Below are positions 1 to 34,736 of a stretch of DNA of 34,736 nt, piece after piece. The stretch covers positions 1 to 34,736 of IMG/VR virus record IMGVR_UViG_3300030330_001316; one strand, given 5' to 3'. The notes beneath the pieces were generated by a model. The model saw nothing but the letters and a program-made list of their open reading frames with translations, was not told the DNA's origin and ran no database searches. The position numbers and the translations under genes are program-made. Position 1 is the first letter of the stretch; each line of letters begins with the position of its first letter. Source of the DNA: a virus (taxonomy: Duplodnaviria > Caudoviricetes).

Positions 1-97
1 ATTGGCTGAATTTGCACCCGCATCAAAGGTTGCAGCACTTCCACACCCTAGGCTTGTTCGAGCTGTTAAACCTGATTCTAAAACAAAGTTGGAACCA
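1..97. repeat. Terminal direct repeat (assembly overlap indicating a circular or circularly permuted genome), copy 1
   Basis: Bases 1-97 are identical to 34640-34736. An internal near-copy at about 34019-34115 differs at several positions, so the exact match is end to end. Confidence 0.93.
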
Positions 98-1035
98 TCA
101 CCAACAATGAAGTTGGAATCTGTTGGTGTCAGTCCTGCAATGTCATCAAGTTGTGCATCATGTGCTTGGACATCTGAACCAATGGCAAGACCAAGTGATG
201 TGCGGGCCGTGGCTCCTGACTCTGTCACAAAGTTGGAACCATCACCAATGATGATGTGGCTATCAGTTGGTGTCAATCCTGCAATGTCATCAAGTTGTGC
301 ATCATGTGCTTGAACGTTTGTGCCAATGGTTAGACCAAGTGAAGTGCGGGCCGTGGCTCCTGACTCTGTTACAAAGTTTGAACCATCACCCACAATGAAA
401 GCACCATCAGCTGGTGTCAATCCTGCAATGTCATCAAGTTGTGCATCATGTGCTTGGACATCTGAACCAATGGCCACACCAAGTGATGTGCGGGCCGTGG
501 CTCCTGACTCTGTCACAAAGTTGGAACCATTGCCAATGATGATGTGTGAATCTGTGGGAGTCAATCCTGCAATGTCATCAAGTTGTGCATCATATGCTTG
601 AACGTTTGTGCCAATGGTCAGACCAAGTGATGTGCGTGCCGTGGCACCACTTTCTCCGATCCATTCAGAACCATCACCAACCAAGAAGGTGGAATCTGTT
701 GGTGTCAATGTTGCATTCACATCATTGATTGTTTTGAGATTAAGAACAACAGGACCAGTCAATCCGTTCACACTTGCCACGGCATCAGTGTTGTCAATGA
801 CATCAAACATGGCACTATTGATTGGAGATGATGCGTCTTGATTAAATACAATATGATCACCAACATTCAATGTGACACCTGCCAAGGTTCCACCTGTTGA
901 AACAATGTAGAAGTCACCCTTGACTGAACTGGTCAAGTCAGGTGTGTTGGTGGTTACGTTGTATGATCCTTTATAGGTCAAGCCACCTGTGACACTGCCT
1001 GCACTTGTTGGATTTGCTTTTATTTCAATACTCAT
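1..1035 (-). CDS. Tail fibre protein, N-terminal part (continues across the join into 34639-33626; about 682 aa in total)
   Basis: Absent from the ORF track. ATG at 1035 follows AAGGAG and reads MSIEIKANPTSAGSVTGGLTYKGSYNVTTNTPDL...VASVNGLTGPVVL, then 48-aa repeats, with no stop before base 1. It is in frame with ORF 33626..34633. Confidence 0.85.
   Translation of the reverse strand, partial: MSIEIKANPTSAGSVTGGLTYKGSYNVTTNTPDLTSSVKGDFYIVSTGGTLAGVTLNVGDHIVFNQDASSPINSAMFDVIDNTDAVASVNGLTGPVVLNLKTINDVNATLTPTDSTFLVGDGSEWIGESGATARTSLGLTIGTNVQAYDAQLDDIAGLTPTDSHIIIGNGSNFVTESGATARTSLGVAIGSDVQAHDAQLDDIAGLTPADGAFIVGDGSNFVTESGATARTSLGLTIGTNVQAHDAQLDDIAGLTPTDSHIIIGDGSNFVTESGATARTSLGLAIGSDVQAHDAQLDDIAGLTPTDSNFIVGDGSNFVLESGLTARTSLGCGSAATFDAGANSAN
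50..700. repeat. 144-bp (48-aa) tandem repeats in the tail fibre, four full units plus one partial unit
   Basis: GTCATCAAGTTGTGCATCA recurs at about 142, 286, 430 and 574. Unit is ARTSLGxxIGxxVQAxDAQLDDIAGLTPxDxxxIxGxGSNFVxESGxT. Confidence 0.95.
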
Positions 1036-1044
1036 GTTTTCTCC

Positions 1045-1410
1045 TTATTTCACAAAGCCTGCGATGAAGTAAACTGAATCACCTGATGCACCTTTTTTGT
1101 ATGCAATGGTGGAAACTTCTTGAGCAATGGTCACAATGTCATCACTGTATGAATAATCAACAGGCAATTCATTTGTAATGGCATCACCTGCACCTGTTCG
1201 AGCACGATATTTTATATACATCAAGTTAGATCCTTTGTTGACAACTGCCAAGAAAGCAAACTTCAAACTTGCTGCACATGCTGAACCCGTGGTTGAATCC
1301 ACAAAGTCTGATGATACTAAGTCATTCCAATTGGTATTTGCTACACCTGATGCATTATAAACACCTCTGATTGAACCTGCACTCATTGGGTCATTTGTTA
1401 GAAACGGCAT
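1045..1410 (-). CDS. Hypothetical protein, probably virion or tail associated
   Basis: ATG at 1410 preceded by GAAGGAG; beta-rich 121 aa; lies directly upstream of the tail fibre gene. Confidence 0.6.
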   Translation of the reverse strand: MPFLTNDPMSAGSIRGVYNASGVANTNWNDLVSSDFVDSTTGSACAASLKFAFLAVVNKGSNLMYIKYRARTGAGDAITNELPVDYSYSDDIVTIAQEVSTIAYKKGASGDSVYFIAGFVK

Positions 1411-1654
1411 CTTTTGATTCTCCTTCATTGTTGGGTTGAGTCTTTGATTTGATTACGTTGGAACCTGCAAAGATCAAGAATAAACTATCAATTGCACTGA
1501 TAATTTCTGCATGTGCTTTTCCTATTAAAGCAAGGATAAACAAGACAAGCAAGGTGCAATAAAACGCCATTGCTTTACGTCCACCAAAGAAGTCCAACAT
1601 GGTCCTGTCTTTGGTCTCTTCTGTCTCTTCTGTCTCAGTCTTCATAGTCTTCAT
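1391..1654 (-). CDS. Holin-like small membrane protein (start may be 1654 or 1645)
   Basis: Two hydrophobic segments (AMAFYCTLLVLFILALIG and IISAIDSLFLIFAG) with charged termini; directly follows the CHAP hydrolase. Confidence 0.6.
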   Translation of the reverse strand: MKTMKTETEETEETKDRTMLDFFGGRKAMAFYCTLLVLFILALIGKAHAEIISAIDSLFLIFAGSNVIKSKTQPNNEGESKDAVSNK

Positions 1655-2324
1655 CAATCAATCTATAAACGTGTGCAACGTCTTCAAGGTTTCGTGTACG
1701 TTTGACCACACCTTCACGCCATGTCTGATCAGGTCCAACACCATGTGCATTGCCTTCTGTGGTGTGGAAGTTTCCTTCTTTATCAGGTGATGTGCGTGCA
1801 ATGGTGATGTGGTTACCATAGAATGGTGTTTGTTCTTTGGATGTGTACACAACCACAATGTCACCTGGTCTGATGTCTTCATTGTCTTGATGGCGTGAAG
1901 TCTCAAACCAATTATCATACAATCTCCAACATGAAGGGAAGATCTTTTGACGCACAATGAAACGCACTTTTGGTCCATATACGGCAGCAGCAAAAGCACC
2001 ACACCAAGCATATTGACCGTTTCGTATATAATCTTTTTCCCAAGTCCATCCAAGTGCATTGGTGTTCTTGATGTAGTATGTGATGCGGCTTGAATCACCA
2101 CCTCCACCAGGTTCTGTGATGTTGTCTGACCACTCTGATTCAGCATTCTTCAAGACATATGCAACATGCTCATGTGGATTGACATTGCGTTCAATGTTTA
2201 CATTCACATTCTTTTTAACATTGATGTCAATATTGATCTGATTCAATGCACGTCTGTAACGTCTTGTTTCATGTTCGAGAAGGTCAAGTTTTTCTTCAAG
2301 TTGTGCTTTTGTATATCTACTCAT
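1635..2324 (-). CDS. CHAP-family cysteine peptidoglycan hydrolase (endolysin or virion lysin)
   Basis: Motifs AWCGAF (catalytic Cys), PGDIVV, GNHITI (His) and TTEGN are typical of CHAP/NlpC-P60 amidases; N-terminal coiled coil. Confidence 0.8.
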   Translation of the reverse strand: MSRYTKAQLEEKLDLLEHETRRYRRALNQINIDINVKKNVNVNIERNVNPHEHVAYVLKNAESEWSDNITEPGGGGDSSRITYYIKNTNALGWTWEKDYIRNGQYAWCGAFAAAVYGPKVRFIVRQKIFPSCWRLYDNWFETSRHQDNEDIRPGDIVVVYTSKEQTPFYGNHITIARTSPDKEGNFHTTEGNAHGVGPDQTWREGVVKRTRNLEDVAHVYRLIDEDYED

Positions 2325-5300
2325 ACATATTCCTTTCCATTGTCAGATGCACCTAAGACACCTGATGTGTTTGCAATATAGGCATCCACTTGTTGACCTG
2401 CCGTGGCACTTGCATATGCAGTTGGTTCAAGTGTACCGTTCAATGTTGAAATGCCGTGGGTTGTGGTAAATGTGATGGTTGCAGTTGATCCATTGTCAAC
2501 AATGGAAGAGATGACCAAACCTGTGGTTGCATTATCATGGTCACCTGGTGGCAAGTAATCAACCACATCATCCACTTTGAAGAAGTCAGAATCCTTGACA
2601 TCTACACCCAAGGCATTGGAGTTTGAAAAGGCATCTTGGTCAATGGTCACTGTGGTTGTGGTTGGTGCAGCTGTCACAAGTGCTGAATCATGCCATGATG
2701 CAGAACGCAATCCTGTGTGGATCAATTCAACTTCACATCCTTCACCCATTAGTTCTTGACGTATTGAACGGATAAATCCAACACCATCAGTGACACCATA
2801 GTCAGGACCATATGCCTTCAACAATGGTGAATTGACCAATGCATACCTGCCAACATCCATCAATGCACTTTGACCCGTTCCAATCATACCACGCCATACA
2901 CGCAAGGGATTTGAAAGAAGATTAAAGAGTCGAGTAATGACAGGCAAGAAGAATGAAAAGGAGTCACCACCCGTTCCACCAATCTGATCAGATGACACAC
3001 CAAACAAATCCAATTTAATACCCTTGGTTTCATTGTTGTATCTGTTGATGGCTTCTTGATTGTTGAAGATGCGTTGTGTTCTAAGTTTCTGTTCATTGAC
3101 ATCATAATCAAAGTTGACTTCAATCTGTGTGACTATGTCTTCATAGGTTGACCAGGTTGGTGGATTGTCTGCAATCCAATCACCTTCATTGATGGTCAAT
3201 GCACTTGATGCGGCTTGTTCGAGTCCAATGGGTTGCAATGCTATCTTGCAACGTCCATCTTGATTGCGCCTCATCACCAAGACTGCACCCATTGCTTGAA
3301 GAAGTGGTGTGAGCACTCCCCTAAAATCCTCACCTTCACTTCTCAAGTCAAGGTTGATCATTATGTTTGGAATGGATTCATATTGCAAGAATGAATTAAT
3401 GTCAATCTCAGTGTCCTTGATATTCAACCCAATGGATGACTGATCAAAAGTGCCGTTCACACTTGATCCACCTCCACTTTGAAGAAGTCTCAAGATAGCT
3501 TCACCAGGTGTTTGAAATGTAATTCGGTTACTCAAGTAAACCCTTGCAGGTTCAAATCCTGACCAATCACCAAATGATGAACGTCTTGAATCTGCAAAAG
3601 GTTCTTGGATGTGCAACAAGAATCCAACATCTGAACCACCATATGTTGCAGTTGATTGGTGTGTTATTGGAAAAGTCTGTGATGATTCACGTTCATTTTT
3701 CCTGTCATAATAAACCACCTCAACACCAAAAGACACACCCGCACTTGCTGATGTTGGCAAACCTAGGTTGTCTTTCACCAAGATTGTTGGTTCACCATTT
3801 TGATAATATGCGAGTGCAGTCCCTCTGATGTCATTCTTCTTGCTTTGGTCTTTCCTGTCTCCACCTTTGAAGGATGCCCAAGATGCACTCTCAAAAGGTT
3901 CTTCAACGGCACCTTGTTGAACAATTGGATCACTTGGATGTGGAGTCACCCAAATGTCAAAAGGATAAAACAATCTTTCCATGTTGTCTGTGGTGTATAT
4001 GCCTGTGATATTATTATCCCATATACCCAATGGTGGAAGTTCATATACATATTCAAGATATTTCAAGGCACGTTTACCTGTGAAAAAGAATATGGTGGAA
4101 TCTGCCGTTTCTTTGTTCACCAATGACTTCATCATAAAAGATGTATCATCTGAGATCTTCCAATTAATGAAGGCACCCAATGTTCCTTGTGCTGATCCTG
4201 TTTGATTTGTTTCAAGTACAGTGTTGATGATTTCAGGAAATCTTTGAACACCTGATGTGATCCTGTATGATTTGATTTCACCCCGTGGTGTTCTTACTCG
4301 AACACGCTTTGTTGCAGATGATGCAGGCACAAGACTGTTGTATGATGTGTTTGTGTTGTCATAAGTCAGATTGGTGGATGTCATGGTTTCAGGAAACAGA
4401 CGTCCATCTGAGTTGATCAATTCAGGATAGCGTGGATGGATATAATAGTTTCCATCATCAGCAGGTGGTAAGCTTGCATCAAAGGTTGTGGAATGATCAA
4501 GTGGTAGGTCATCAGCATCAAAAGTCAATGTGGATGAACCTGTTGAACCTGTAACACCAAAAGGTTCACTGTCTAGTGTAAAGATTCCAAACTCCAATCT
4601 TGATCCATTCAATTCATCAAAGTTGTGGTATCCATGCAAGAGACCAGTTTCAATTGCAGTTTCTGAAACCTTGTTGTCAATTAAAGCAGTCAAGGGAACC
4701 AATGACAATTGGATTGAATCAAGTGTGTCCACAATTGGAGACGATTCAATAAAGCCATTGATAATTTCTGTCATTGCATTGATTGAACCATCAGGTCTTT
4801 TCTGACCCATATATAAAGAAGCCTTGCGCCCTCGAAAGTTCACAATGTCTGTGTAGACTTCAGGCACATTGGTTCCACCCAATGATGATGCGTGTGTTTG
4901 AATCGGTGTACGTCCAACACCACGTGTGGAAATGGTCAGTGTTGTGGATGTTGCAGAACTTACCCGCACTGATTCAGCTCCGATATGCATCACACGAGGA
5001 AAGGACAAGGATGTGAAATCTTGATCAACTGTGATGGTCTTGGTGCTGTCATTGTGAAATAGATCAGTTGAAACTTGTGCCTTGGTCACATCTGTTGCAC
5101 GTGGTCCACATCTTCCAAAGATTACATGTGGATCATCAGTGCCACCTCTTAACCTTTCAGAGGAAAGGACAATTGAAACGGGTGCATAGTCTGCAATCCC
5201 ACCTGCAGGATCAATTGAAGCTTGGTATGCACCAACTGAAACAATGCCTTGAACGTTCGAGTAAGGCACACCCGTTGTCAAGTTGGCATCAAGATTGGTT

Positions 5301-5395
5301 GTGGAAATATCCACATCATCAGACACATACCTTGTGGAAAGTCCACCAATTTCCAAAACAAAGACGCGTCTGCCGTGGTCCTCAAGTATGCTCAT
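2321..5395 (-). CDS. Large tail tip / baseplate hub protein (1024 aa)
   Basis: Size, beta-rich Thr/Ser/Gly composition and position downstream of the tape measure; ATGA overlaps with both neighbours. Confidence 0.7.
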   Translation of the reverse strand: MSILEDHGRRVFVLEIGGLSTRYVSDDVDISTTNLDANLTTGVPYSNVQGIVSVGAYQASIDPAGGIADYAPVSIVLSSERLRGGTDDPHVIFGRCGPRATDVTKAQVSTDLFHNDSTKTITVDQDFTSLSFPRVMHIGAESVRVSSATSTTLTISTRGVGRTPIQTHASSLGGTNVPEVYTDIVNFRGRKASLYMGQKRPDGSINAMTEIINGFIESSPIVDTLDSIQLSLVPLTALIDNKVSETAIETGLLHGYHNFDELNGSRLEFGIFTLDSEPFGVTGSTGSSTLTFDADDLPLDHSTTFDASLPPADDGNYYIHPRYPELINSDGRLFPETMTSTNLTYDNTNTSYNSLVPASSATKRVRVRTPRGEIKSYRITSGVQRFPEIINTVLETNQTGSAQGTLGAFINWKISDDTSFMMKSLVNKETADSTIFFFTGKRALKYLEYVYELPPLGIWDNNITGIYTTDNMERLFYPFDIWVTPHPSDPIVQQGAVEEPFESASWASFKGGDRKDQSKKNDIRGTALAYYQNGEPTILVKDNLGLPTSASAGVSFGVEVVYYDRKNERESSQTFPITHQSTATYGGSDVGFLLHIQEPFADSRRSSFGDWSGFEPARVYLSNRITFQTPGEAILRLLQSGGGSSVNGTFDQSSIGLNIKDTEIDINSFLQYESIPNIMINLDLRSEGEDFRGVLTPLLQAMGAVLVMRRNQDGRCKIALQPIGLEQAASSALTINEGDWIADNPPTWSTYEDIVTQIEVNFDYDVNEQKLRTQRIFNNQEAINRYNNETKGIKLDLFGVSSDQIGGTGGDSFSFFLPVITRLFNLLSNPLRVWRGMIGTGQSALMDVGRYALVNSPLLKAYGPDYGVTDGVGFIRSIRQELMGEGCEVELIHTGLRSASWHDSALVTAAPTTTTVTIDQDAFSNSNALGVDVKDSDFFKVDDVVDYLPPGDHDNATTGLVISSIVDNGSTATITFTTTHGISTLNGTLEPTAYASATAGQQVDAYIANTSGVLGASDNGKEYV

Positions 5396-6033
5396 GGTGT
5401 CACCTCAGGTTGATATAGATCAAAGAAAGAAACTGAAACAAGATCACAGTCTTCAACTTCCACTTCAAACAGAAGCATATCACCACGGTTTGCAGATGGA
5501 ATATACAATGGCCTTGGATCATCAGAACCACTTGTTCCACTTGGTGGATCATAAAAGGTTGCACCTGTGGTTGCCAATGCAGGTCTGTCAAGATCTCCAT
5601 CATTGAACATTTGAAGGTGTGCAGGAAATGTGAACTTGACTGCTTTGGATAAGACTGTACCACTTGTATTCTTTATTCTGAATGTGATTGCAGGACTGTT
5701 TCCACTACTTGAATTAGTGGCTACGTATTGAAAGATCACACCGATCCATTCACTGATTGGTGTTGATCCATAATAAAATGAATAGTATTTGTTTGTCTTG
5801 TTCAGACCTGGTGAAATACCTGACCAATTTGTGTTGGTTACTACATTGAAGATTGTGGCAAACCTTCCAATGGTATCCTTAGCAATTGTATAGTTGGCAT
5901 GACCAAGGAACTTGCAATGTGACATTTGGACCAATGCTTGTGCAAATTGGTTGACGACTCCACCCATTACAGTGACACCCATAAAGGTGGATTGTTCCCT
6001 TGCAAGTGGTTGGTATGATCTTGGTACTAGCAT
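5392..6033 (-). CDS. Minor tail protein (hypothetical)
   Basis: Tightly packed 213-aa ORF in the tail-tip cluster. Confidence 0.6.
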   Translation of the reverse strand: MLVPRSYQPLAREQSTFMGVTVMGGVVNQFAQALVQMSHCKFLGHANYTIAKDTIGRFATIFNVVTNTNWSGISPGLNKTNKYYSFYYGSTPISEWIGVIFQYVATNSSSGNSPAITFRIKNTSGTVLSKAVKFTFPAHLQMFNDGDLDRPALATTGATFYDPPSGTSGSDDPRPLYIPSANRGDMLLFEVEVEDCDLVSVSFFDLYQPEVTP

Positions 6034-6035
6034 CT

Positions 6036-7112
6036 TTAATTACTCCAAACAGACAAGGCAGTGATACGAGGCAAGGACAAAGACACTGCCAACCTATCAG
6101 CAGAATCAAGAAGTGTGTCTGATTCCACATAAGCAGTTGGATTGATCTTGTACAATGGAAATCCAAAGACCACAGATTCAAGTGTGGTGTTCTCCAATGA
6201 TGGTGTGAAGTTGAATTCATTCCACCCGTTCGAGGTCACAGAAAACAACCTGTTCATAAAGGCAAACTTTTTGGTGCCACTAATATTGACCACATATATC
6301 CACAAGGTGATTGAACCACCTCCAATGAATAGTGGACTTTGAACTTGCATTGATTGACAATCACCAACACCCAAGGACTTGGGACTTTGACCACGTCCTG
6401 TGAATGCACTTGGTGTAGCATCTGCATTCTGTATTCCTGACCAGATTAACAATGGTCTTTTCCTTGATCTCAATGTTTGAATGTTTGTTCTCCATTGGAC
6501 ACCCGCACGAGATGAAAGTGCATTGTTTGCACCAAGACGTGAAGCACCAAAAGGTGTGATCTTGTCAGAACCTTGTGCCGTATTTCCTGCACTCAATGGT
6601 GAAGTCAATGCAGTGAAACGTGCTGCAATCACTTGGACATCCACATCATATGTGTTTGCATCAACCTTGCCTTGCATAACAATGTCCACATAAACAGCTG
6701 TTGTGGATGATGTGAAGGTGTGTGAAACTGTTGCGTGTGCGTATGTGCTTGCAGTTGATGTGATTGAAATGGAACTGTTTCCTTGTGCCACACTGTTGGC
6801 ATCTGTCAAGGTGAACTTTAAGGTGCCTGTTCCTGTGGATGTGACACGTGCTGCAACATGGAATTGAATCGTGGTGTGGTCATTGGATGGTATAGGGACA
6901 CGCCATCTACAAAGATCCACAAATGAGGTGGAGTTAGTCACACATGTGTTGGCATCAAAAGCTTGACTAATACAATTCGAGGTGGATCCATGTGCATGCA
7001 GATAATTGGAAAGGTCACCCATACGTGCCAATGTGGTTGTGGTAATCACACGGCCTGCAATCAAATCACTTGTGTCAGGAACATTGGGTGGACTTGTAAA
7101 TGTGTTACTCAT
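6036..7112 (-). CDS. Minor tail protein (hypothetical)
   Basis: Start revised to ATG 7112 (MSNTFTSPP), which overlaps the upstream stop; Thr/Ser-rich; tail-tip cluster. Confidence 0.6.
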   Translation of the reverse strand: MSNTFTSPPNVPDTSDLIAGRVITTTTLARMGDLSNYLHAHGSTSNCISQAFDANTCVTNSTSFVDLCRWRVPIPSNDHTTIQFHVAARVTSTGTGTLKFTLTDANSVAQGNSSISITSTASTYAHATVSHTFTSSTTAVYVDIVMQGKVDANTYDVDVQVIAARFTALTSPLSAGNTAQGSDKITPFGASRLGANNALSSRAGVQWRTNIQTLRSRKRPLLIWSGIQNADATPSAFTGRGQSPKSLGVGDCQSMQVQSPLFIGGGSITLWIYVVNISGTKKFAFMNRLFSVTSNGWNEFNFTPSLENTTLESVVFGFPLYKINPTAYVESDTLLDSADRLAVSLSLPRITALSVWSN

Positions 7113-8305: not shown

Positions 8306-8307
8306 GA

Positions 8308-11358: not shown

Positions 11359-11361
11359 GTG

Positions 11362-25179: not shown

Positions 25180-25461
25180 ATGAATGTGAACTTTGATTCA
25201 ATTTGGCATATTATCGGACTACTTGGAACCATTGGTTCATTGATCTTTTATGCTGCTCGAACACTTGGAAAGACCATGGAACAAATTGAAAGACTGCAAG
25301 AGGCTTTGGTTTTATTGCAACAGAATTTGGAGAGTCAAACCAAGTCTTGCAAAGATGGAAGAATTGAACTGTGGACTGAAGTGAACAAGATGAGAGAAAG
25401 ACTTGCCAAGGTTGAAACGTTGCAAGAACATCAAACCGCTTTGAGTGTGAATCAAAAATGA
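25180..25461 (+). CDS. Membrane-anchored coiled-coil protein (93 aa)
   Basis: GGAG RBS, one N-terminal transmembrane segment, heptad-rich remainder; ATGA overlap with thyX. Confidence 0.7.
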   Translation: MNVNFDSIWHIIGLLGTIGSLIFYAARTLGKTMEQIERLQEALVLLQQNLESQTKSCKDGRIELWTEVNKMRERLAKVETLQEHQTALSVNQK

Positions 25462-26105: not shown

Positions 26106-26554
26106 CCTGGTCGGTTCATTGGATCAACCATGCGTTCTTGATCTCAAACCAATCACCATGCACACGTGGTCAAGTTGGTTGTGTTATAGTTGACCAATTT
26201 AATAATCCTGTTTCAATGGGTTTCAATGGTCCACCTCGAAAGGCACCAGGCACTTTGTGCAATGTAGATGAATGTGAACGGACTAAACAAAACATTAAGT
26301 CAGGTACACAGATTGAAATTGGTTGCCATCATGCTGAACAGAATGCATTGATGAACGCATTAAGGAAAGGAATCAGTGTTTTAAACTGTTCTATTTATAT
26401 CACCACGGCACCATGTTTGGTTTGTGCAAGGTTGATCCATCATGCAGGTATTGAGTCTGTTCATTATCCCTCTTCAAGTGCATATGATCAAAGAGGCAAA
26501 GAATACTTGATCAAGAACAATGTGAAGATAAACATGATAAGTGTTTCCAAATAA
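26102..26554 (+). CDS. dCMP deaminase
   Basis: Zinc motifs HAEQNA and PCLVC, plus SPCTRGQVGC and GFNGPP; start ATG 26102 overlaps the thyX stop. Confidence 0.93.
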   Translation: MTWSVHWINHAFLISNQSPCTRGQVGCVIVDQFNNPVSMGFNGPPRKAPGTLCNVDECERTKQNIKSGTQIEIGCHHAEQNALMNALRKGISVLNCSIYITTAPCLVCARLIHHAGIESVHYPSSSAYDQRGKEYLIKNNVKINMISVSK

Positions 26555-26637
26555 GGTCAGACATGTTAAATTGTGTACAGTTGGTCAGAACCTTGTGCCT
26601 TGGGTGCTGTTGGCTGACAAGTAAAGTTGATACATAG

Positions 26638-26682
26638 AATGAAGGTGTGGTGTTCTCCCAATGTCCACACCTTCATTTTTTT
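26638..26682 (+). terminator. Rho-independent terminator between convergent operons
   Basis: 13-bp perfect stem AATGAAGGTGTGG / CCACACCTTCATT, 14-nt loop, then a T run. Confidence 0.75.
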
Positions 26683-27667
26683 ATGTCCAAAAGTCATCAG
26701 ATGCACGTCTGTCTTGACCTTGCATTTTGAACTTGAAACCCTTGCACATGGATCCAATGCGACTGATTGAACGCATGTCAAGGAATTGTGTTTTCATCTG
26801 TTTTGGTGTCATGTTGGATGCAAAGAGAACTTGAACACCAGCCGCATGGATTGCATGGATCAGTTCATTGGTTGTCTGTCTTGACCATTCATTTTGTCTG
26901 AAGAATCCAAGCTCATCAAACAGAACCACATGCACACCATCCAACCATGAAAAGCGTGGATCAGTAATGGATTTATCAAAAGACTTTCTGATGTCCTCCA
27001 AAAGCTGTTGATGTGAAACATACTTGATCTTTTTACCCGACCAAATCAATTCTCTAGCAATGGCACATAAAAGATGTGTCTTTCCATTTCCTGTTGTTCC
27101 ATAGATTAAACCACCTTGATGTTTACCTTGGACAAACTCCAAAGCAAGTTCTTTTAGACCAGGTTCAAAATCATAATTTCCAACATGCTTGCCAATGGCA
27201 TCAGCTGTCAAACCACTGTTCTTGAAGTTGAGTAGATACTTGTTTGTAAGTCCACAATATTTGCATGGCACACCATATGTATATGAATGCTCGACAGGCA
27301 CCCACATTCCATCATCATCAATGATCAAGTTGTGAGGACGTTGTGAAACGTCTTCAATCTCCTTGCCATCTGTCTTGACCATCACAGGATGATATTCAGC
27401 AAGATCATTGAGTGTGCGGGTTTCTTGCTTTGAATGGATACCTGAATGTGAGGCAGTACATCCATCATATTCACAAGCGGGTAAAAGATTCACATTGAGT
27501 TGTGGAACTCCACCAATGACTTCACGTGTCAACAGGTTGGACTCTTCAAGTCTTCTATGATGGACAATGGTTGGTTCTTTGACCTCGGTTTGAATTGCAT
27601 TGGATTTCAATGAACGTGCCCAATGTTCAAGGTTAAAGTCTTTCAATGCGTCTTTGATTGATTTCAT
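26681..27667 (-). CDS. DnaC/IstB-like AAA+ helicase loader
   Basis: Walker A GTTGNGKT, Walker B VVLFDELG, FASN and RSISRI motifs; Cys pairs (CEYDGC, CKYC) in the N-terminal part; follows the initiator. Confidence 0.88.
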   Translation of the reverse strand: MKSIKDALKDFNLEHWARSLKSNAIQTEVKEPTIVHHRRLEESNLLTREVIGGVPQLNVNLLPACEYDGCTASHSGIHSKQETRTLNDLAEYHPVMVKTDGKEIEDVSQRPHNLIIDDDGMWVPVEHSYTYGVPCKYCGLTNKYLLNFKNSGLTADAIGKHVGNYDFEPGLKELALEFVQGKHQGGLIYGTTGNGKTHLLCAIARELIWSGKKIKYVSHQQLLEDIRKSFDKSITDPRFSWLDGVHVVLFDELGFFRQNEWSRQTTNELIHAIHAAGVQVLFASNMTPKQMKTQFLDMRSISRIGSMCKGFKFKMQGQDRRASDDFWT

Positions 27668-27692
27668 GTGTTCTCCTTTACATGAATGTGGT

Positions 27693-28331
27693 TTATTTCC
27701 AAAAAGGCGTTGCAGCTTGTGGAAAGAGTAAACGTTGTTTGTCTGATTCTAGCATCTTTGGTCTTGATTGGATATAAAGTTCTGTTTGCCGTCTGACCAC
27801 AGGATCTTGGATTGAACTTGGATAAATCCAAAAATCATCAATACCCCCCCCCTCAATGCAAACTTGATCCACTTCCATGTCACCATGTGGTTCAGGTTCT
27901 TCTATATTGTTTGTAATTGAATTAATATTGTTACTTATTGTATGGATGTCATCAGTGTCACTCTCAAAGGTGTCATGTGTGTCACCCCCTAGTGTCATTG
28001 GTGACACCCCCTTAGTGTCATGTGTGTCATCTAGTGTCATTGGTGACACCCCCTTAATATTAGAAACCAAGACAGTTGTTTGTGCAATTGTAGACACTTC
28101 TTTTTCAATATGTTTGGATGTTCGAGTGATCCACTTAATTTCAATTAATTTCTTGATTGCTCTTTGTACTGTTCTTTTTTTGATGTTGGTTAGACTGACA
28201 AGTTGACTGATGGCCACCTGACCAGTGAAAGACTTCCAATCAACCTTTAAGAGAATAGCCAACATAACTATCTTTTCAGTTGATGTGAGATCAGATGCCA
28301 TGACTTGCAATCTTACGTCATATTCTTTCAT
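27693..28331 (-). CDS. Replication initiator (lambda O-like, N-terminal winged HTH)
   Basis: LTSTEKIVMLAI...RTVQRAIKKLIEIKWI HTH, internal DNA repeats, paired with a DnaC-like gene; start ATG 28331. Confidence 0.82.
   Translation of the reverse strand: MKEYDVRLQVMASDLTSTEKIVMLAILLKVDWKSFTGQVAISQLVSLTNIKKRTVQRAIKKLIEIKWITRTSKHIEKEVSTIAQTTVLVSNIKGVSPMTLDDTHDTKGVSPMTLGGDTHDTFESDTDDIHTISNNINSITNNIEEPEPHGDMEVDQVCIEGGGIDDFWIYPSSIQDPVVRRQTELYIQSRPKMLESDKQRLLFPQAATPFWK
27901..28056. repeat. Putative replication origin: iterons plus AT-rich unwinding element
   Basis: 26-bp repeat at 27989 and 28031, 15-bp repeat at 27970 and 28015, many GTGTCA units; AT-rich tract 27901-27940. Confidence 0.8.
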
Positions 28332-28467
28332 GTGTTCTCCTTTCTTGATATGTCTTTTATATATTGGTCTAAAATTAAATTCAATATAAATTAACAAAAA
28401 AGTTAATTAACGGTTGACAAAAAAGTTAATTAGTGTTTTTATCAAATCATCAAAGAAAGGAGAACAC
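28332..28467. promoter_or_regulatory. Divergent early control region with two tandem operator-like sites
   Basis: TT(A/G)ACAAAAAAGTTAATTA at 28391-28409 and 28414-28432; the second contains TTGACA. Confidence 0.7.
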
Positions 28468-28671
28468 ATGAAAGATCAAATCATTTCTGATCTGAAAGAC
28501 CAGTCAATGACACTGAAGACATTGGCATCAGACATGAATTGCAGTTATGAGCATCTTATATATGTATTAAATGGACAACGTCCAATGTCATACAAGGTTG
28601 CAAACAAACTGTGTGAATCACTCAACAAACTTACCTCGAACAATTACCACCTGACTGACTTTGGATTTTAA
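28468..28671 (+). CDS. Cro/XRE-like HTH transcriptional regulator (67 aa)
   Basis: MTLKTLASDMNCSYEHLIYVLNGQRPMS HTH pattern; AAAGGAGAACAC RBS. Confidence 0.82.
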   Translation: MKDQIISDLKDQSMTLKTLASDMNCSYEHLIYVLNGQRPMSYKVANKLCESLNKLTSNNYHLTDFGF

Positions 28672-28681
28672 GGATATACAA

Positions 28682-28876
28682 ATGAACTATAATCAACGTT
28701 TACAACGCACGAGACAAATTGAACTTTTTACCTTCTTGATCATGGTTATCTTTGCGGCTTGCTTGATGATCAAGTTTCAAGACAATTGCAAAGAACGCCG
28801 TGGAGCTGCTCACCAGGTCAAGGCACCCAAGGCTGAAATCCTCAAAGACGTTTCTTTTACACTTTCAAACAAATAA
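28682..28876 (+). CDS. Small membrane protein (64 aa)
   Basis: AAGGA RBS, ATG 28682, one hydrophobic segment LFTFLIMVIFAACLMI. Confidence 0.6.
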   Translation: MNYNQRLQRTRQIELFTFLIMVIFAACLMIKFQDNCKERRGAAHQVKAPKAEILKDVSFTLSNK

Positions 28877-28905
28877 ATAATACTTGCATATAAAGGAGAA
28901 CAAAT

Positions 28906-29532
28906 ATGCTTACCGAACAACAAGATCACATCATCAAGAATGCATCCAAAAATCAAAATGAATATGATGACAATGTGAAATGCTTTTTAACCTTTGGTCA
29001 TCTCTTCAACCACAATCCTCTTGCATGTATGTCTCAAACATATTGCATTCATGGAAAGCCTGCATTGAATGCTGATGCCATGGTTGGAATTGTGAGAAAG
29101 TGGGTTGATCCTGTAACAGGTCAAAAGGTGTGTGCAATGATGAAGGCTGAAACATTGACACCTGAATATGATGATCAAGGCAACGTCAATCCAAATACTG
29201 TTGGTGTGCGGTATGTGGCCATGCGTACTGATGAATTAATGATGTCAAAGGAATATGGGATTGATGCACCAGTTCATACTTGGACTTTCACCTTGAATGA
29301 TGCAATGTTGCGAAACAATCATAAAAACCGTACATGGCGAGAAATGCCATTGATCATGTGTGGAAAACGTGCTGCAACTGCTTTGTGCCGTATGGCGTTT
29401 CCTGATGTGGTTGGAACTGCCAACAGTCCTGATGAACTTGCTGAACAGATGTTACAAGATTCTGATGAAGTTGAACGCATTGCCTATGCATCCAATGGTG
29501 AACGTATACCTTACGATTTAAAACAAGGTTAA
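28906..29532 (+). CDS. RecT-like single-strand annealing protein
   Basis: YCIHGKPAL and W..MP..M..KRA...LCRMAFPDV...DEL patterns as in RecT/Redbeta-like phage annealases; AAAGGAG RBS. Confidence 0.7.
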   Translation: MLTEQQDHIIKNASKNQNEYDDNVKCFLTFGHLFNHNPLACMSQTYCIHGKPALNADAMVGIVRKWVDPVTGQKVCAMMKAETLTPEYDDQGNVNPNTVGVRYVAMRTDELMMSKEYGIDAPVHTWTFTLNDAMLRNNHKNRTWREMPLIMCGKRAATALCRMAFPDVVGTANSPDELAEQMLQDSDEVERIAYASNGERIPYDLKQG

Positions 29533-31529
29533 TGAGGCAACTCACACTTCAAGCCATCACAGGCACCAGTCAAGTGTGCATCATTTCCACCTGCAATTGA
29601 TGTGAAGTCAATCACAGACCAATCAGTTTCATTTAACATCTTCCACTTTGCAGCACCAAGGGAACCATCCAAAACGGTTTGATAAGGTGCATTCTCATAA
29701 ATGAAGTCACCCGCATCAGGCAACATGGCCACACCTTTCACTGTGTGTCTGATCTTCCACAACCAATCTGCAACAAATCTCCATTCATGGTTTTTTATTG
29801 TGCAGGTGTTTGACACGTTGTGTGTCAATCCTTCAATGCGAGTGTTGATACTACCAGGTAGCACCCAATGCTTCTGAACAAGGTCCACCTGTTCGAGGTG
29901 GTATTGTGCATTCACTTCTTCTCTTATCCATGCATTAGTATCAGGAACTTCACATGCAAATTGGATGATACCCGTGTCACCATCTTGGTCAATGACCACA
30001 TGTGGAAGTTTCTCCTTGATCTCTTTCCATACAGGGTTGATCTTGCTTAGTCTGATAGTCCTGATCCAACGTTTTGCATGAAACGGGTGGATGCCTGCAC
30101 TTGTACCAAGTAGTGTGGATGTGTTTCCACTTGGCTTGATACATGTTGTTCGAGATGCATAATTGATTCCAATCAGTTTGGACACTCTAATGTTTTCATC
30201 TACAACAGCCGCGGCACCCGCTTCAAGGATCTTTGGTGAGAAGGACACACTGAAGTTGGAATACATACCTGTCAAGCTAACACCAATCAATGCCTCTTGT
30301 TCAATGATCTTCTTTGATGTTCTTCCTAAATATCCCGTGTCTGTATATCCTGCCTGCAATGTACCAATAAAAGACGCAACCTTGCACGATTCAATGAACT
30401 CTTCAAAGGTCTTGTTTTTTTGCATGTTGATCTCGGTTAGATTGCAAACACTCCATCCACTTCTAAAGATCCACCCTGTCTGTTCAAGGCGTTCTTTGTC
30501 CCGACTAACAGACAAAGGTATTTTCTCCATAGTTTCACCACTTGGTGATTGTACCCAATAAGGCCACAAACCAATTTCACAACATGGATTTGTTCCAAAG
30601 TCAGGAGCATTGGAAAAGAACACACCAGGTTCACCAAAGTTACTATTGAGATCAACTGCACGTTTCACATTCACTTTGGATTCATTGCCATCAGTCACAA
30701 TTGTTGAACTAATATTTGCATATGCTCGGTTAGGATGTGTGATATACCAATCACCAACTTTTGCCTTAAGCATCAATTCATCATCATCATCAAACAGACA
30801 GATGGATGCAGAACGTCTGACACCACCTGATAAGACAGCAGCAGACAAAGACATGCACATGTCAAAGACATCCACAGATCTCAAACGTTTACCAAGACGT
30901 GAAACCAAGATGTGTCTGATTTCATTCAAACACGCTTCAAGTGGTTTGTGACCTGGTGCAATTCCACCTGATGAAATAGGTGAACCCTTGGGTCTGACTA
31001 GGTGATAATCAAAATGTATTTCATAATCAATGGAGTGATCAAAATAATCAGTGTGAAAGTATGAATCCAATAATGCTTGTAATGCTGCACACCAACCTTC
31101 AATGGAGTCTTGAACAAGATGCAAGAGATCTTTACGCACTTGATGCTGTTCAACTGATATAATTCGAGGTAGTTCTTTAATGTGTCTTTGCTTTACACTG
31201 AAACCTGTACCACACCCGCACAATAACAACCAAAACATTTCACTGAAAAACCGTGGTCTGTCAGCTGGTGAATATGTGCAGTTATATATTCTCATGTTTC
31301 TTTGCTTGATGGCCTTACCTCCAAATTGCATGGACCTTTGTGAAGGCACCACCCGCTTTGATTTGACCAGGTCAAAAGCTTCTTTAATTTCATCTTCTAG
31401 GTGTGGATACTTTTCAACATGCATGTCAACCACCCGATCAACTGCATCAGTCCATGATTCTCTTCCACCTTCTTTTTGTCTTGCGTATTGTGAAGCAAAG
31501 ACCACTTCACCCATTAATTCATTTTGCAT
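29529..31529 (-). CDS. nrdJ: Class II adenosylcobalamin-dependent ribonucleotide reductase (monomeric RTPR type)
   Basis: PSQRSMQFGG, YNC, GCGTGFS, GGVRRSA, TNPCCEI, CNLTEIN, TCIKPSG and C-terminal CDGLKC redox pair; no beta-subunit gene present. Confidence 0.93.
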   Translation of the reverse strand: MQNELMGEVVFASQYARQKEGGRESWTDAVDRVVDMHVEKYPHLEDEIKEAFDLVKSKRVVPSQRSMQFGGKAIKQRNMRIYNCTYSPADRPRFFSEMFWLLLCGCGTGFSVKQRHIKELPRIISVEQHQVRKDLLHLVQDSIEGWCAALQALLDSYFHTDYFDHSIDYEIHFDYHLVRPKGSPISSGGIAPGHKPLEACLNEIRHILVSRLGKRLRSVDVFDMCMSLSAAVLSGGVRRSASICLFDDDDELMLKAKVGDWYITHPNRAYANISSTIVTDGNESKVNVKRAVDLNSNFGEPGVFFSNAPDFGTNPCCEIGLWPYWVQSPSGETMEKIPLSVSRDKERLEQTGWIFRSGWSVCNLTEINMQKNKTFEEFIESCKVASFIGTLQAGYTDTGYLGRTSKKIIEQEALIGVSLTGMYSNFSVSFSPKILEAGAAAVVDENIRVSKLIGINYASRTTCIKPSGNTSTLLGTSAGIHPFHAKRWIRTIRLSKINPVWKEIKEKLPHVVIDQDGDTGIIQFACEVPDTNAWIREEVNAQYHLEQVDLVQKHWVLPGSINTRIEGLTHNVSNTCTIKNHEWRFVADWLWKIRHTVKGVAMLPDAGDFIYENAPYQTVLDGSLGAAKWKMLNETDWSVIDFTSIAGGNDAHLTGACDGLKCELPH

Positions 31530-31536
31530 TGATTCC

Positions 31537-31956
31537 TCATCTTAAACTTAAATACAAGGTTGATGCTGTCAGCACACCAACCAATGCACCTGAAACAATG
31601 AGAAGTTTATTTGAATATTCTTTCTCTTGTTCAAGTTCCTGTTTAAGATGTTCATTCAATTGTTTTGTTTCGTCAAGAGTCTTTTGAAATATGTTGATCC
31701 TACTTTCACAACGTTGGACACGTTCCTTGACTTCAAGTTCAAAACGGGTCTTGATTTCACTAACTCGAATTAAGCAACTGTTTCCATGCAATGCACTTTG
31801 GATGTCAGCCATATCACCAACAGAAACAATGAAACCATTGGAGGGTGCCACGGTCCCCACAGGTACAAACTTGGAACGGATTTCATGGCCATCATCAAGA
31901 GTGATGGTTGCAAATCCAAGTTGGAGGATTGCAGGCAAAACAAGATTCAAAATCAT
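31537..31956 (-). CDS. Membrane protein with signal-like N-terminus, coiled coil and C-terminal TM (spanin-like)
   Basis: Hydrophobic ends and heptad core; ATGA-coupled to the upstream gene; no lipobox seen. Confidence 0.5.
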   Translation of the reverse strand: MILNLVLPAILQLGFATITLDDGHEIRSKFVPVGTVAPSNGFIVSVGDMADIQSALHGNSCLIRVSEIKTRFELEVKERVQRCESRINIFQKTLDETKQLNEHLKQELEQEKEYSNKLLIVSGALVGVLTASTLYLSLR

Positions 31957-32291
31957 TTCTTTCTATCCTTAACAATCCGATCAATTAAAGTATTGCAGTT
32001 GATTTTAATGGATTCTTTTTCTTCCCTGCAAATCCGTTGCTCACGTTCAATGCAAGATGTTTCACCATCTGCAATACACTTGGCATGTTTGGATTCAAGT
32101 GAATTGATCTGATGTGTCTGTTCTTTGATAAGTTCCACCTTTTCAGAACAGATCACTTTTGGATCATCACTTGCAAGAGACATTCCAAACATGATGGACA
32201 AAGATATGACGATTAAAAACAACAAGACCAAAACAAAAGGAGATTGCAAAATCTTGTCAGCATCTTTTAAATCTAAATTTAAATTAAACAT
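31953..32291 (-). CDS. Membrane-anchored Cys-rich coiled-coil protein (i-spanin-like)
   Basis: N-terminal TM followed by a helical domain with five Cys. Confidence 0.5.
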   Translation of the reverse strand: MFNLNLDLKDADKILQSPFVLVLLFLIVISLSIMFGMSLASDDPKVICSEKVELIKEQTHQINSLESKHAKCIADGETSCIEREQRICREEKESIKINCNTLIDRIVKDRKK

Positions 32292-32788
32292 TATTCAATT
32301 CTCCATATCATACAACGTCCAAGGCCACTGTTGGAATCATATTGTGTATCCTCAATTTCAACATTGGTGTTGGTCTTTTTAACTTGCAAACCAATAATTG
32401 CAGTTCCATCACTTTCTATGTATCCTCTTGCATGTTCATTTTTATGTGGATCACCAATGGCAAGTGCACCAACTTCACGCCCTTCATACCCAATAACAGT
32501 GCGGGTGGAACCGTCCCAAGAATACCAAGTATATTCAGATCCCCACGTGCCTGTTGAACTTGATTTTGTCATCATACGTGCATCAAGATAAAACTTGCCA
32601 CTTGGAAGGGTGACTCTGTGGTTGGTTGTATCAATTGTCAGTGTGGATGAATATTGATCAATCACAGTGTCATATCCTGCTGCAAGTTCAACGTCTGCAT
32701 AACTAGTTGATGTGACGTTTTGGTTGGTCACTAAGTTAAGAATAAAAACACTTAGCTTTCCTTTTGTGGCTTCACTGAAATATGTCAT
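32291..32788 (-). CDS. Small tail-fibre-associated beta-sandwich protein 3
   Basis: Start ATG 32788 (MTYF), VTLPSGKFYL segment, ends CMIWRIE. Confidence 0.6.
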   Translation of the reverse strand: MTYFSEATKGKLSVFILNLVTNQNVTSTSYADVELAAGYDTVIDQYSSTLTIDTTNHRVTLPSGKFYLDARMMTKSSSTGTWGSEYTWYSWDGSTRTVIGYEGREVGALAIGDPHKNEHARGYIESDGTAIIGLQVKKTNTNVEIEDTQYDSNSGLGRCMIWRIE

Positions 32789-33186
32789 GTGTTCAATCTC
32801 CAAAGTCTACAATGTGAGTAATTTGTGAAACTGATGGATCCTGTACCAGCTGATGTTGCACGATCAGGTTCAACCGTGTTGGCATAGTCAAAAGCATCTT
32901 CACTTATTTGGAAAAGATTATTGCTTTCACTTGGCATGCGTCCTCTATACTTAAAGTCTGATAGTCCTGTATTTGGATAATAGACCATAGCCCTGTTTGT
33001 CACTCCATCATTATCACGTGACATACGCATAATAATAATAGCATTATCAGTCAATGAAGTGACACCACTTGAAACAGTTGTGACCATATCGTTTGGTATA
33101 TCAAAAACCACATCATCAATGGTTGTGGAGGTCACTGCCGTTGATTGGATGTAACCAATTGATGGTCTTCTTGGTGTATAACTCAT
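32785..33186 (-). CDS. Small tail-fibre-associated beta-sandwich protein 2
   Basis: Start ATG 33186 (MSYT), ATGA-coupled, ends CRLWRLNT. Confidence 0.55.
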   Translation of the reverse strand: MSYTPRRPSIGYIQSTAVTSTTIDDVVFDIPNDMVTTVSSGVTSLTDNAIIIMRMSRDNDGVTNRAMVYYPNTGLSDFKYRGRMPSESNNLFQISEDAFDYANTVEPDRATSAGTGSISFTNYSHCRLWRLNT

Positions 33187-33629
33187 ATATCCACTTCCTT
33201 CCAAACCACAATGCAACCACCCGCATCTGTTGGTGTTCCTGTGGATGTTAATGTTTTTACAATTAATTTCACATCAACTGACACGGGTGCATTGATTGTT
33301 GCAAGTGCCACATCACGTTCACCAACGGCATCACCTGAAACTTGAACTTGTCCAACAATGCCAACATCAGCAAAAGATCCACTTGAATTTTCTTGCCACA
33401 CAAAAGTAATCACATCATTTTGGTCTACTACATCCACATATGGATACCCTTCAATCATATAACGACCAGGTGACAAAGTAATGACACCACTCGAAATGGA
33501 CAATGCCAAATTCCCTGTTGCACTCGCCAATGAATATGTTGCACCTTGTGAATAACTTGCAAGACTAAGTGAAGCAAGTGCAAGTCTGAATTCCACTTGT
33601 CTTGTTCCTAAGTTGCGTTTATATGTCAT
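33183..33629 (-). CDS. Small tail-fibre-associated beta-sandwich protein 1
   Basis: Start ATG 33629 (MTYK) overlaps the fibre stop, ITLSPGRYMI segment, ends CIVVWKEVDI. Confidence 0.6.
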   Translation of the reverse strand: MTYKRNLGTRQVEFRLALASLSLASYSQGATYSLASATGNLALSISSGVITLSPGRYMIEGYPYVDVVDQNDVITFVWQENSSGSFADVGIVGQVQVSGDAVGERDVALATINAPVSVDVKLIVKTLTSTGTPTDAGGCIVVWKEVDI

Positions 33630-34639
33630 ATGATGATCCATCCTGTTCCATCTGAACATAAAGTCACAGATTCATATTGAACAGTCAAAGTGATTGCTGT
33701 ACCTGCACCACCTGAATCAATTTGCTCGGTTCCATCAGGATCAATGGTGATGGTAGATGCAAGCAAGTTCTTGACCTGTAATTTGAATCCTGTCAATCCA
33801 CTTGATGATGGAAGGTTCACAGTTGCAGCAGATGAAGAGCAAGTATAAACCCGTTCAAGTTCACTCGCACCAATTGCACCATCTGTGGTTCCAATTGTAT
33901 ATGTTGCGGCTGTAATGGATGTGACTGTTGGACGTGTGCCACCTCCACTTGGCAGATTGGTCAATAGTGAACCATCAACAGCAGGCAACTTGCCCGCGGC
34001 TGTCAGTTGAACAAGTTGGTTGGCACTGTTGGCACCCGCATCAAAGGTTGCAGCACTTCCACACCCTAGGCTTGTTCGAGCTGTTAAACCTGATTCTAAA
34101 ACAAAGTTTGAACCATCACCAACAATGAAGTTGGAATCTGTTGGTGTCAGTCCTGCAATGTCTGCAAGTTGTGCGTCATATGCTTGGACATCAGTGCCAA
34201 TGGTTAGACCAAGTGAAGTGCGTGCCGTGGCTCCTGATTCTGTCACAAAGTTGGAACCATCACCAACAATGATGTGTGAATCTGTTGGTGTCAATCCTGC
34301 AATGTCTGCAAGTTGTGCGTCATATGCTTGGACATCTGAACCAATGGAAACACCAAGTGATGTGCGGGCCGTGGCTCCTGACTCTGTCACAAAGTTGGAA
34401 CCATTGCCAATGATGATGTGGCCATCAGTTGGTGTCAGTCCTGCAACATCATCAAGTTGTGCGTCATATGCTTGGACGTTGGTGCCAATCACAAGGCCAA
34501 GGTTGGTGCGTGCTGTTCCTACATTGGCTAAATCACTCAAGTTGTTTGATGCGAGCAAATCACCTCCACCAGGTAAATTGGTCAATAGTGAACCATCAAC
34601 AGCAGGCAACTTGCCCGCGGCTGTCAGTTGCACAAGTTG
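33626..34639 (-). CDS. Tail fibre protein, C-terminal part (continuation of 1035-1)
   Basis: Three more 48-aa repeats, duplicated AATFDAG...LPAVDGSLLTNLP module and C-terminal TVNLP...SVTLCSDGTGWIII domain. Confidence 0.85.
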   Translation of the reverse strand, partial: QLVQLTAAGKLPAVDGSLLTNLPGGGDLLASNNLSDLANVGTARTNLGLVIGTNVQAYDAQLDDVAGLTPTDGHIIIGNGSNFVTESGATARTSLGVSIGSDVQAYDAQLADIAGLTPTDSHIIVGDGSNFVTESGATARTSLGLTIGTDVQAYDAQLADIAGLTPTDSNFIVGDGSNFVLESGLTARTSLGCGSAATFDAGANSANQLVQLTAAGKLPAVDGSLLTNLPSGGGTRPTVTSITAATYTIGTTDGAIGASELERVYTCSSSAATVNLPSSSGLTGFKLQVKNLLASTITIDPDGTEQIDSGGAGTAITLTVQYESVTLCSDGTGWIII

Positions 34640-34736
34640 ATTGGCTGAATTTGCACCCGCATCAAAGGTTGCAGCACTTCCACACCCTAGGCTTGTTCGA
34701 GCTGTTAAACCTGATTCTAAAACAAAGTTGGAACCA
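34640..34736. repeat. Terminal direct repeat, copy 2
   Basis: Identical to bases 1-97. Confidence 0.93.

Follow-up and report, generated by a model that had tools for sequence, protein, structure and literature searches.

Why would a phage hold one version of a short sequence word at nearly regular intervals along its whole genome and purge the other versions of that word? This question is raised by the IMG/VR virus record IMGVR_UViG_3300030330_001316 (Duplodnaviria; Caudoviricetes), all 34,736 nucleotides of which, hereafter the window, were analyzed. The record is complete and circular, with a 34,639-bp circle and 41% GC, and its last 97 bp (34640..34736) form a direct terminal repeat that copies positions 1–97, that is, a circular assembly overlap; the public sequencing runs that contain the phage, with rows of small share set aside, are marine, and two complete holders among them may be the record's own source. 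An initial annotation, made from the letters alone, had described evenly spaced TTCGAG/CTCGAA sites along this genome. We confirmed that this TCGA lattice is real and found it to be larger than first reported: a second lattice, of CCAG sites, runs beside it, and lattices of this kind recur across the phage family.

In total, 42 TCGA sites were counted on the circle (57..34081), with a mean gap of 825 bp, in both orientations and in all three codon frames, and the linear window holds 43, one of which (34696) is the terminal-repeat copy. All 42 lie within TCGAG/CTCGA, 25 as TTCGAG, 14 as CTCGAA and one each as GTCGAG, CTCGAT and CTCGAC, and the palindromic hexamers TTCGAA, CTCGAG, ATCGAT and GTCGAC each have a count of zero on the circle. 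The counts, contexts, coordinates and missing palindromes that had been compiled by hand were thereby reproduced, as were the 23 sites reading GTTCGAG, whose G at −2 is only weakly preferred (55% versus a background of 33%). Gaps between neighbouring sites run from 257 to 1735 bp with a coefficient of variation (CV) of 0.427, in agreement with the earlier range and the hand-computed CV of about 0.4, compared with 0.98 ± 0.14 under random placement; none of 20,000 simulations gave a value that low. The suggested comparison with words of similar abundance set the TCGA words apart: they were the most even among 20 4-mers, 128 5-mers and 398 6-mers with 25–60 sites, whereas control words with 25–60 sites had median CVs of 0.98–1.03, and the lowest CV among 117 7-mers was 0.70.

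To evaluate whether coding constraints could produce this pattern, the counts were compared with codon-preserving shuffles, a check that the initial annotation had also called for, and the shuffled genomes did not reproduce the TTCGAG enrichment. Across 40 open reading frames (ORFs), TTCGAG/CTCGAA occurs 38 times, versus 6.9 ± 2.5 (maximum 14) in 500 synonymous-codon shuffles and 4.6 ± 2.1 in 300 shuffles that also preserved the next base, which amounts to a 5–8-fold enrichment across the two nulls. Overall, TCGA is depleted in ORFs under the plain shuffle (41 versus 99.5 expected); this whole-word depletion no longer holds under the stricter null (41 versus 23.6), because that null inherits the low CG, and the TCGA contexts other than TTCGAG are depleted under it as well (3 versus about 19 expected). 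Over the window, the observed-to-expected ratio (O/E) is 0.19 for CGA and 0.33 for TCGA. Opportunity does not account for the spacing either, for the 376 places at which TTCGAG could be written synonymously are unevenly spread (CV 1.16), and none of 50,000 random 39-subsets of them reached a CV of 0.467 or below, the gap CV of the 39 TTCGAG-only sites being 0.47. The distance of the sites to gene starts is as expected (388 versus 371 ± 26 bp), so that no link to gene starts is seen, and the use of three frames means that the sites are not tied to one peptide. An artefact or base composition as the cause was therefore rejected, given control k-mers with CVs near 1, the failure of the codon and opportunity nulls, and the lack of a gene-start or peptide link.

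The order of the gaps is also structured, with short gaps followed by long ones (lag-1 gap correlation −0.46, P = 0.001 in the window), and any 8-kb interval holds 8–11 TCGA sites. The largest gap, 20102–21837 (1735 bp), contains a gene for an N6/N4 DNA methyltransferase that lies between terminase and portal (20646..21803, minus strand; PF01555, E = 3.6e-29), and the second largest, 31764–33490 (1726 bp), covers most of three accessory ORFs that adjoin the tail fibre gene (32291..33659, minus strand) and have no tblastn match in 16 relatives. Thus both of the largest gaps span ORFs absent from most or all of these relatives, and the two largest gaps of the relative G002 likewise span variable gene slots.

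A CCAG/CTGG lattice, which the initial annotation had missed, as it had the CGA-core purge and the lineage dependence of the motif, comprises 61 sites (411..34572) with a mean gap of 569 bp and a CV of 0.65 (P about 5e-5). Like TCGA, CCAG/CTGG is depleted in ORFs (57 versus 204 expected), and one context dominates: 56 of the 61 sites read ACCAG, with S-A-CCAG-G-T preferred, and TCCAG is absent versus 72 expected. The neighbouring words CCTG, CCA and CAG are not depleted (O/E 1.87, 1.8 and 1.2, respectively), and 37 of the 61 sites are CCAGG, versus 18 of 75 in the relative G006. The two lattices are placed independently, their nearest distance of 193 bp compared with 201 ± 17 bp expected showing no cross-repulsion. 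Both are blind to the strand. The pooled-strand CV of TTCGAG in the window is 0.43, versus 0.61 and 0.60 for the single strands, and gaps between same- and opposite-orientation neighbours are equal for TTCGAG (P = 0.61, seven genomes) as well as CCAG (P = 0.22, 30 loci); a contrary hint comes from the window only, in which per-strand TTCGAG evenness is slightly above that of label permutations (P = 0.047).

Next, relatives were collected by their capsid (80 viral and 80 metagenome loci), with smaller sets by ribonucleotide reductase (RNR) and methylase and 16 whole records, and 61 loci, not independent of each other, were scored, namely the window, each of the 16 whole records and a selection of 44 loci that favoured longer ones; they are cited here by their G and L labels. 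TTCGAG dominates TCGA, with CGA purged (O/E 0.1–0.3), in G001, G002, G004, G005, G009 and G016, where the CV of TTCGAG is 0.65, 0.58, 0.85, 0.73, 0.52 and 0.51, respectively. G003 and G010 (92% and 90% capsid identity) have no clean TCGA pattern, G003 holding 28 TTCGAG among 101 TCGA without significant evenness. TCGA is abundant in G006–G008, G014 and G015, but a TCCAG lattice is present in them, the one in G006 comprising 75 sites with a CV of 0.51 and a maximal gap of 911 bp and those in G007, G008 and G015 being weaker. The CCAG context thus differs by lineage (ACCAG, TCCAG or GCCAG); ACCAG is retained in G004, G005 and G009 (87% portal identity), G001 has no CCAG lattice, and CCAG is nearly gone from G016 and L017. 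Across the phage and its relatives, the kept copies stand at intervals of about 0.4–0.9 kb, and CCAG lattices permit close pairs (minimum 5–72 bp) yet cap long gaps.

Among all 4-mers depleted in at least five of the 61 loci, the even ones were only CCAG, TCGA and the TCGA overlaps CGAG and CGAA, the others being random or clustered. Mean evenness z-scores were −2.2 in 41 CCAG-depleted loci versus +0.2 in 13 others, and −2.2 in 16 TCGA-depleted loci versus −0.2 in 41 others, with the limit that small site numbers can exaggerate z-scores, a 12-site word of P2 scoring −4.6. Dereplication at 90% capsid identity left 26 representatives of 60 loci, and all 13 CCAG-depleted representatives had z < 0 (mean −1.8), against a mean of +0.2 in nine undepleted ones (P = 1.5e-4). 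No lattice of GATC, TCGA or CCAG was found in lambda, P2 or eight unrelated loci. The CCAG lattice is therefore family-wide, and the TCGA lattice is essentially that of a single clade.

Comparison between close relatives indicates that the spacing is kept while the sites turn over, as the initial annotation had proposed to check. Of the TCGA-lattice sites, 28 of 38 aligned ones are shared with G002 (89% nucleotide identity) and 15 of 37 with G001, a retention similar to that of control words. The private sites avoid the shared ones: G002-private sites lie 737 bp from shared sites versus 412 bp expected (0 of 1500 randomizations), and window-private sites lie 900 bp from G002-shared sites versus 413 bp expected (P = 0.0007). 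This repulsion reached P < 0.001 both ways with G002 and P < 0.03 for window-private sites in all six pairs, whereas among 12 control comparisons two fell below P = 0.05. Spacing, turnover and opportunity nulls together bear out the earlier proposal that selection both retains a site about every kilobase and avoids clustering. The data thus show two independent strand-blind lattices, selection of the favoured context, purging of the other contexts, site turnover with the spacing kept, motifs that vary by lineage, and independence from the phage's own methylase.

What, then, reads these sites? The pattern requires that a site be costly everywhere and useful only where no other site is nearby. 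That the sites are needed is supported by the 5–8-fold enrichment of TTCGAG and by the cut-off of long gaps (maximum 1735 bp), and that they are costly is supported by the purge of the other TCGA contexts, the CGA core and TCCAG. The presence of multiple motifs per genome, which switch between close lineages, looks like the specificities of host modification systems. We favour, at about an even chance of being right, the reading that TTCGAG/CTCGAA (every ~0.8 kb) and ACCAG (every ~0.6 kb) are substrates of host modification that would pass the phage as self to a DNA-scanning defence (DndFGH-, BREX type 4- or DISARM-like) directed against unmarked stretches; a host self-mark was among the candidates of the initial annotation as well. 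Within this class, a phosphorothioate system (Dnd-, Ssp- or BREX type 4-like) appears slightly ahead of a methylation system (DISARM- or BREX-like). In the proposed mechanism, the host would modify the sites, by phosphorothioate or methyl, before packaging, and a marked site would halt or release a translocating nickase or helicase over about 1–2 kb, in the way that phosphorothioate acts on DndFGH. Sites left unmarked or marked poorly would provoke more attack, an effect reported for class 1 DISARM, so that only the best-modified flanks would be retained, and only where their loss would open a long gap; partial marking would explain why long gaps come after short ones. A toy model that charged a cost for each site and penalized the distance from mark to mark gave a lag-1 correlation of about 0 at full occupancy and of about −0.3 to −0.4 at 30–50% occupancy, with similar CV, which is compatible with partial marking in the window but is not proof of it. 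Slightly short of an even prospect is the further proposal of a counter-defence that needs no gene, in which the genome would be tuned to a minimal mark lattice for each host system, such that a ‘missing-self’ scanner would meet a mark within about 1–1.7 kb.

The systems nearest to this reading share some of its features. Phosphorothioate systems (DndABCDE-DndFGH/DndI, SspABCD-SspE and BREX type 4) are reported to have 3–4-bp cores, often non-palindromic and with a flank preference, and they combine partial occupancy with a translocation-blocking mark: phosphorothioate blocks DndFGH nickase translocation (PMC11662687) and releases DndI or SspE (PMC11662687; PMC9646914), only 10–15% of sites are modified, and protection has been proposed to depend on spacing (PMC8053081). 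Among the motifs reported for them are C*AG, C*CA, C*CGG and N*CTC (PMC11931770, PMC12914056), and three such motifs are purged or latticed in relatives of the window phage, namely CAG (L017), CCTC (G013 and L193) and CCGG (L221). They differ in that TCGA and CCAG lie outside the consensus words given in the sources covered and in that those sources describe no phage-side lattice; the window words match none of the reported cores GAAC/GTTC, GATC, GGCC, CCA, CAG, NCTC, CCGG and GAGC. DISARM (class 1 of Serratia, ACACAG and MTCGAK; class 2, CCWGG) resembles the lattices in its TCGA- and CCAGG-containing motifs and its partial methylation; class 1 is reported to methylate ACACAG and MTCGAK partly and to restrict even a motif-free plasmid, with restriction stronger when unmethylated motifs are present and weaker when they are methylated (10.1101/2021.12.28.474362). 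It differs from them since 39 of the 42 TCGA sites are TTCGAG/CTCGAA, outside MTCGAK, since any 3′ base may follow in the CCAG lattices and CCTG shows no depletion, and since no distance rule is given in the DISARM source covered.

Several observations weigh against the self-mark reading. No host, modification data or defence genes were seen for the window phage: scans of GTDB with the capsid protein and a capsid alignment gave no match, and no prophage was found among the 80 metagenome loci, all on contigs of at most 37 kb. The exact lattice motifs are unmatched in the phosphorothioate and DISARM literature covered, TCGA and CCAG are absent from the phosphorothioate consensus words of the paper that was searched for both, and the phosphorothioate words CCA and CAG are not depleted in the window. 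Measured phosphorothioate spacings are mostly 1.5–10 kb, wider than the lattice (PMC8053081), the literature covered demonstrates no such cost of unmodified sites with Dnd or Ssp, and the phage protection reported for DISARM does not scale with site number (10.1101/2021.12.28.474362). As for the lattice itself, TTCGAG evenness is weak in G004 and G005, direct compensation of losses by gains was not significant in any of six TTCGAG pairs, and the lag-1 correlation is negative and significant in only three of nine loci for TTCGAG and absent for CCAG; a negative lag-1 would also arise from any longer-range benefit.

Other explanations were weighed on the same data, and the lattice fails features of HIP1, Dam/GATC, DISARM motifs, polar sites and plain avoidance. 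Chi and KOPS are short genome-wide words that run through genes and are strand-polar and over-represented, from which the phage lattice differs by its independence of orientation. The sites could be strand-discrimination signals for a host mismatch-repair nickase, an analogue of MutH/GATC with another specificity, whose unmethylated sites are cut and yet are needed within about 1 kb of each base. Dam GATC in the MutHLS system is such a costly-but-useful 4-bp site, and the same logic with a range of about 1 kb has been reported for GATC in phiX174 (PMC5014478); TCGA is palindromic, its N6-adenine methylation has been reported on a marine viral genome (PMC8919816), and the spacing is strand-blind. 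Divergence at fourfold sites, however, showed no consistent rise with site distance in six pairs, with slight rises in G002 and G001 only and binned values of 0.44, 0.43, 0.43, 0.39 and 0.42 for G004; this test is weak, and nearly every base is no farther than 0.9 kb from a site; binned rates were used for it as rank statistics are unreliable. GATC itself is randomly spaced in the window (194 sites, CV 1.04), lambda (116 sites, CV 1.02) and P2 (25 sites, CV 1.03), and two independent lattices, the non-palindromic CCAG among them, fit poorly, as does the fast motif change. The mismatch-repair analogy of the initial annotation is thus not favoured, and we regard it as unlikely. Its other proposal, a packaging ruler, is weakened too. 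The words might be binding sites of a DNA-organizing protein, whether a nucleoid factor of the host, HIP1-like, or a protein by which the phage packages or ejects its DNA, and the selected spacing inside genes, blind to strand and frame, would suit such a protein. Cyanobacterial HIP1 (GCGATCGC) offers a precedent as a selected, strand-blind, periodic motif of coding DNA with non-random spacing, but it is reported as an 8-bp palindrome, over-represented 15–300-fold with periods of 10–90 kb (PMC5861425), whereas the phage core is depleted, its spacing is below 1 kb, and all four palindromic TCGA hexamers are missing. A ruler leaves the purge of the other contexts and of the CGA core unexplained, and no gene for a candidate binding protein was distributed in step with the lattice. 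The portal tree places the window together with G001 and G003 (100/100), apart from G004, G005 and G009; the motif state differs among the portals of 95–96% identity (window versus G001 and G003), while those of 87% identity keep ACCAG. Because these tree partners G001 and G003 lack CCAG and a clean TCGA lattice, respectively, the head and packaging proteins are probably not the readers, and a ruler of either kind seems to us as doubtful as the repair signal.

Plain restriction-site avoidance resembles the pattern in that CCGG, GCGC and most TCGA and CCAG contexts are purged in the window, but here one context is 5–8-fold enriched and evenly held, and plainly avoided words are random or clustered. 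A variant in which sites are only costly, a two-site enzyme (McrBC-like or two-site restriction) repelling them and a Vsr-like biased repair regenerating TTCGAG, could draw on the minimum TCGA gap of 257 bp and on the restriction pressure evident from strong avoidance of CCGG (2 sites), GCGC (6 sites) and CGCG. It is improbable, since long gaps are cut off as well, since CCAG tolerates close pairs and caps long gaps, as in G006, and since the presumed repair precursor TTCAAG is enriched rather than drained (80 versus 48.7 expected). Primase or replication signals, for which a spacing near Okazaki-fragment length and the slight per-strand evenness of the window could speak, are highly improbable given that the pooled strands are more even than either strand, that neighbour gaps are equal whatever the orientation and that no primase was found among 44 ORFs. 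Least probable of all is a role of the phage methyltransferase itself in writing or protecting the sites. The window does encode the N6/N4 methylase, yet PF01555 is missing from G001, G002 and G004 (at least 99% complete) despite their TTCGAG bias, and it occurs in G007 and G015, whose TCGA is abundant and whose CGA is not depleted. Because lattice-bearing relatives lack it, this methylase is not the lattice writer; PF01555 in four of 15 relatives and a C5 methylase in two of 16 records (G002, G006) are unrelated to the lattice state. Pfam and PADLOC scans of the orphan ORFs gave no reader candidates, and for an explanation beyond those considered here we keep a very small share.

A literature search on evenly or regularly spaced phage sites, which covered few subscription journals, found no depleted-but-even, strand-independent lattice among the matches listed. 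The lattice is real, selected, family-wide and multi-motif, depleted but even, and without a described reader. The textbook answer of phages to restriction is site avoidance; here selection removes a site and holds its density, on several motifs together, which suggests that some host process gauges how far apart marks lie. How self and non-self are discriminated with partly modified DNA is regarded as an open question for phosphorothioate, BREX and DISARM systems (PMC8053081, PMC9646914, PMC11662687), and the lattices offer an estimate of range, since TCGA gaps are tolerated to about 1.7 kb and, in the most even genomes, CCAG gaps to about 0.8–1.5 kb. If the self-mark reading is true, such lattices would report the motif and surveillance range of undescribed defences (TCGA, CCAG, CCGG and possibly CCTGA) in uncultured marine bacteria, their motifs could be mined from phage sequence alone, and a scan for ‘depleted but even’ words across metagenomes could uncover such systems and connect phages with hosts. 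Should the reader be something else, a selected genome-wide signal without a described reader would still be at hand.

Further words are purged or evenly held in single relatives. CAG/CTG is almost totally purged from L017 (whole 8.8 kb; six sites, O/E 0.03, with CCGG at O/E 5), as well as from L016:1000-5423 and L026, and in L016 CAG-rich sequence gives way to CAG-free sequence near position 1000, likely a recombination boundary. In G013 (L142-L143) and L193, CCTC has an O/E of 0.03–0.05, below TCTC (0.28) and ACTC (0.4–0.46), an order that matches the reported order of BREX type 4 N*CTC occupancy, and CCTA is also at 0.03 in G013. In L221 (13.5 kb), which is CG-poor (O/E 0.3), CCGG is evenly retained (45 sites, CV 0.57), and CCAG has eight sites. 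CCTGA/TCAGG is a candidate third lattice, with 26 sites in G006 (CV 0.43) and 17 in L219 (CV 0.54), occurring also in L161 and purged from L159 (one site); in G006 it is only a lead because z at small site numbers can be inflated. CTC and CGC are purged from L156:1-8600 (O/E 0.19 and 0.18), where TCTC stands evenly at 17 sites (CV 0.49), none of them after 8526, and the non-palindromic CCGA/TCGG has no site in G004 (37 kb), G009 (26 kb) or L087 (15 kb). Over G001–G016 and L149–L228, at about 80% capsid identity, O/E runs from 0.38 (window) to 1.64 (G015) for CG and from 1.65 to 0.67 for CA, and the GC content within the family is 38–65%.

Both lattices pass through a siphovirus-like virion and packaging module on the minus strand (8308..24420), which comprises tape measure, major capsid (15556–16572), protease, portal (19040–20488) and terminase. 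The slot between portal and terminase (20489–21805) holds an N6/N4 methylase in the window, a C5 methylase in G002 and G006 or a T5orf172/GIY-YIG-like ORF in G009 and G013, or is empty. A replication and nucleotide module follows (24601..31529), with a single-stranded DNA-binding protein (SSB), ThyX, dCMP deaminase, DnaC-like loader, O-like initiator, helix-turn-helix protein, RecT-like protein and class II RNR; the scan of 44 ORFs revealed no primase, polymerase or integrase. By tblastn, cultured phages gave no capsid or terminase match, the best RNR reaching at most 40% and the best portal at most 26% identity. A plasmid SSB search and the Atlas (viruses only) gave no host indication, nor did homologue and cluster look-ups, which returned only distant, uninformative names, the sole hint to the host being a Shine-Dalgarno-like GGAG upstream of many window genes.

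The repeat-rich tail fibre gene (682 aa, minus strand, PHROG tail fibre match) has its 3′ part at 33626..34639 and crosses the circular origin from 1035. It carries 48-residue repeats (144-bp period) and an internal duplication of 621 bp, and the TCGA sites at 57 and 34075 sit in two copies of the same repeat unit. The small plus-strand ORFs at 2–841 are shadows of this origin-crossing gene. A Mu-like protease/scaffold of 688 aa (16981–19047, minus strand) has a DUF5824 region at its N-terminus and short KKMNEH repeats, and an AT-rich TATATATATATGTATATATGTATAC tract (25060–25110) separates the divergent SSB-side and ThyX-side genes and is a possible origin or promoter region.

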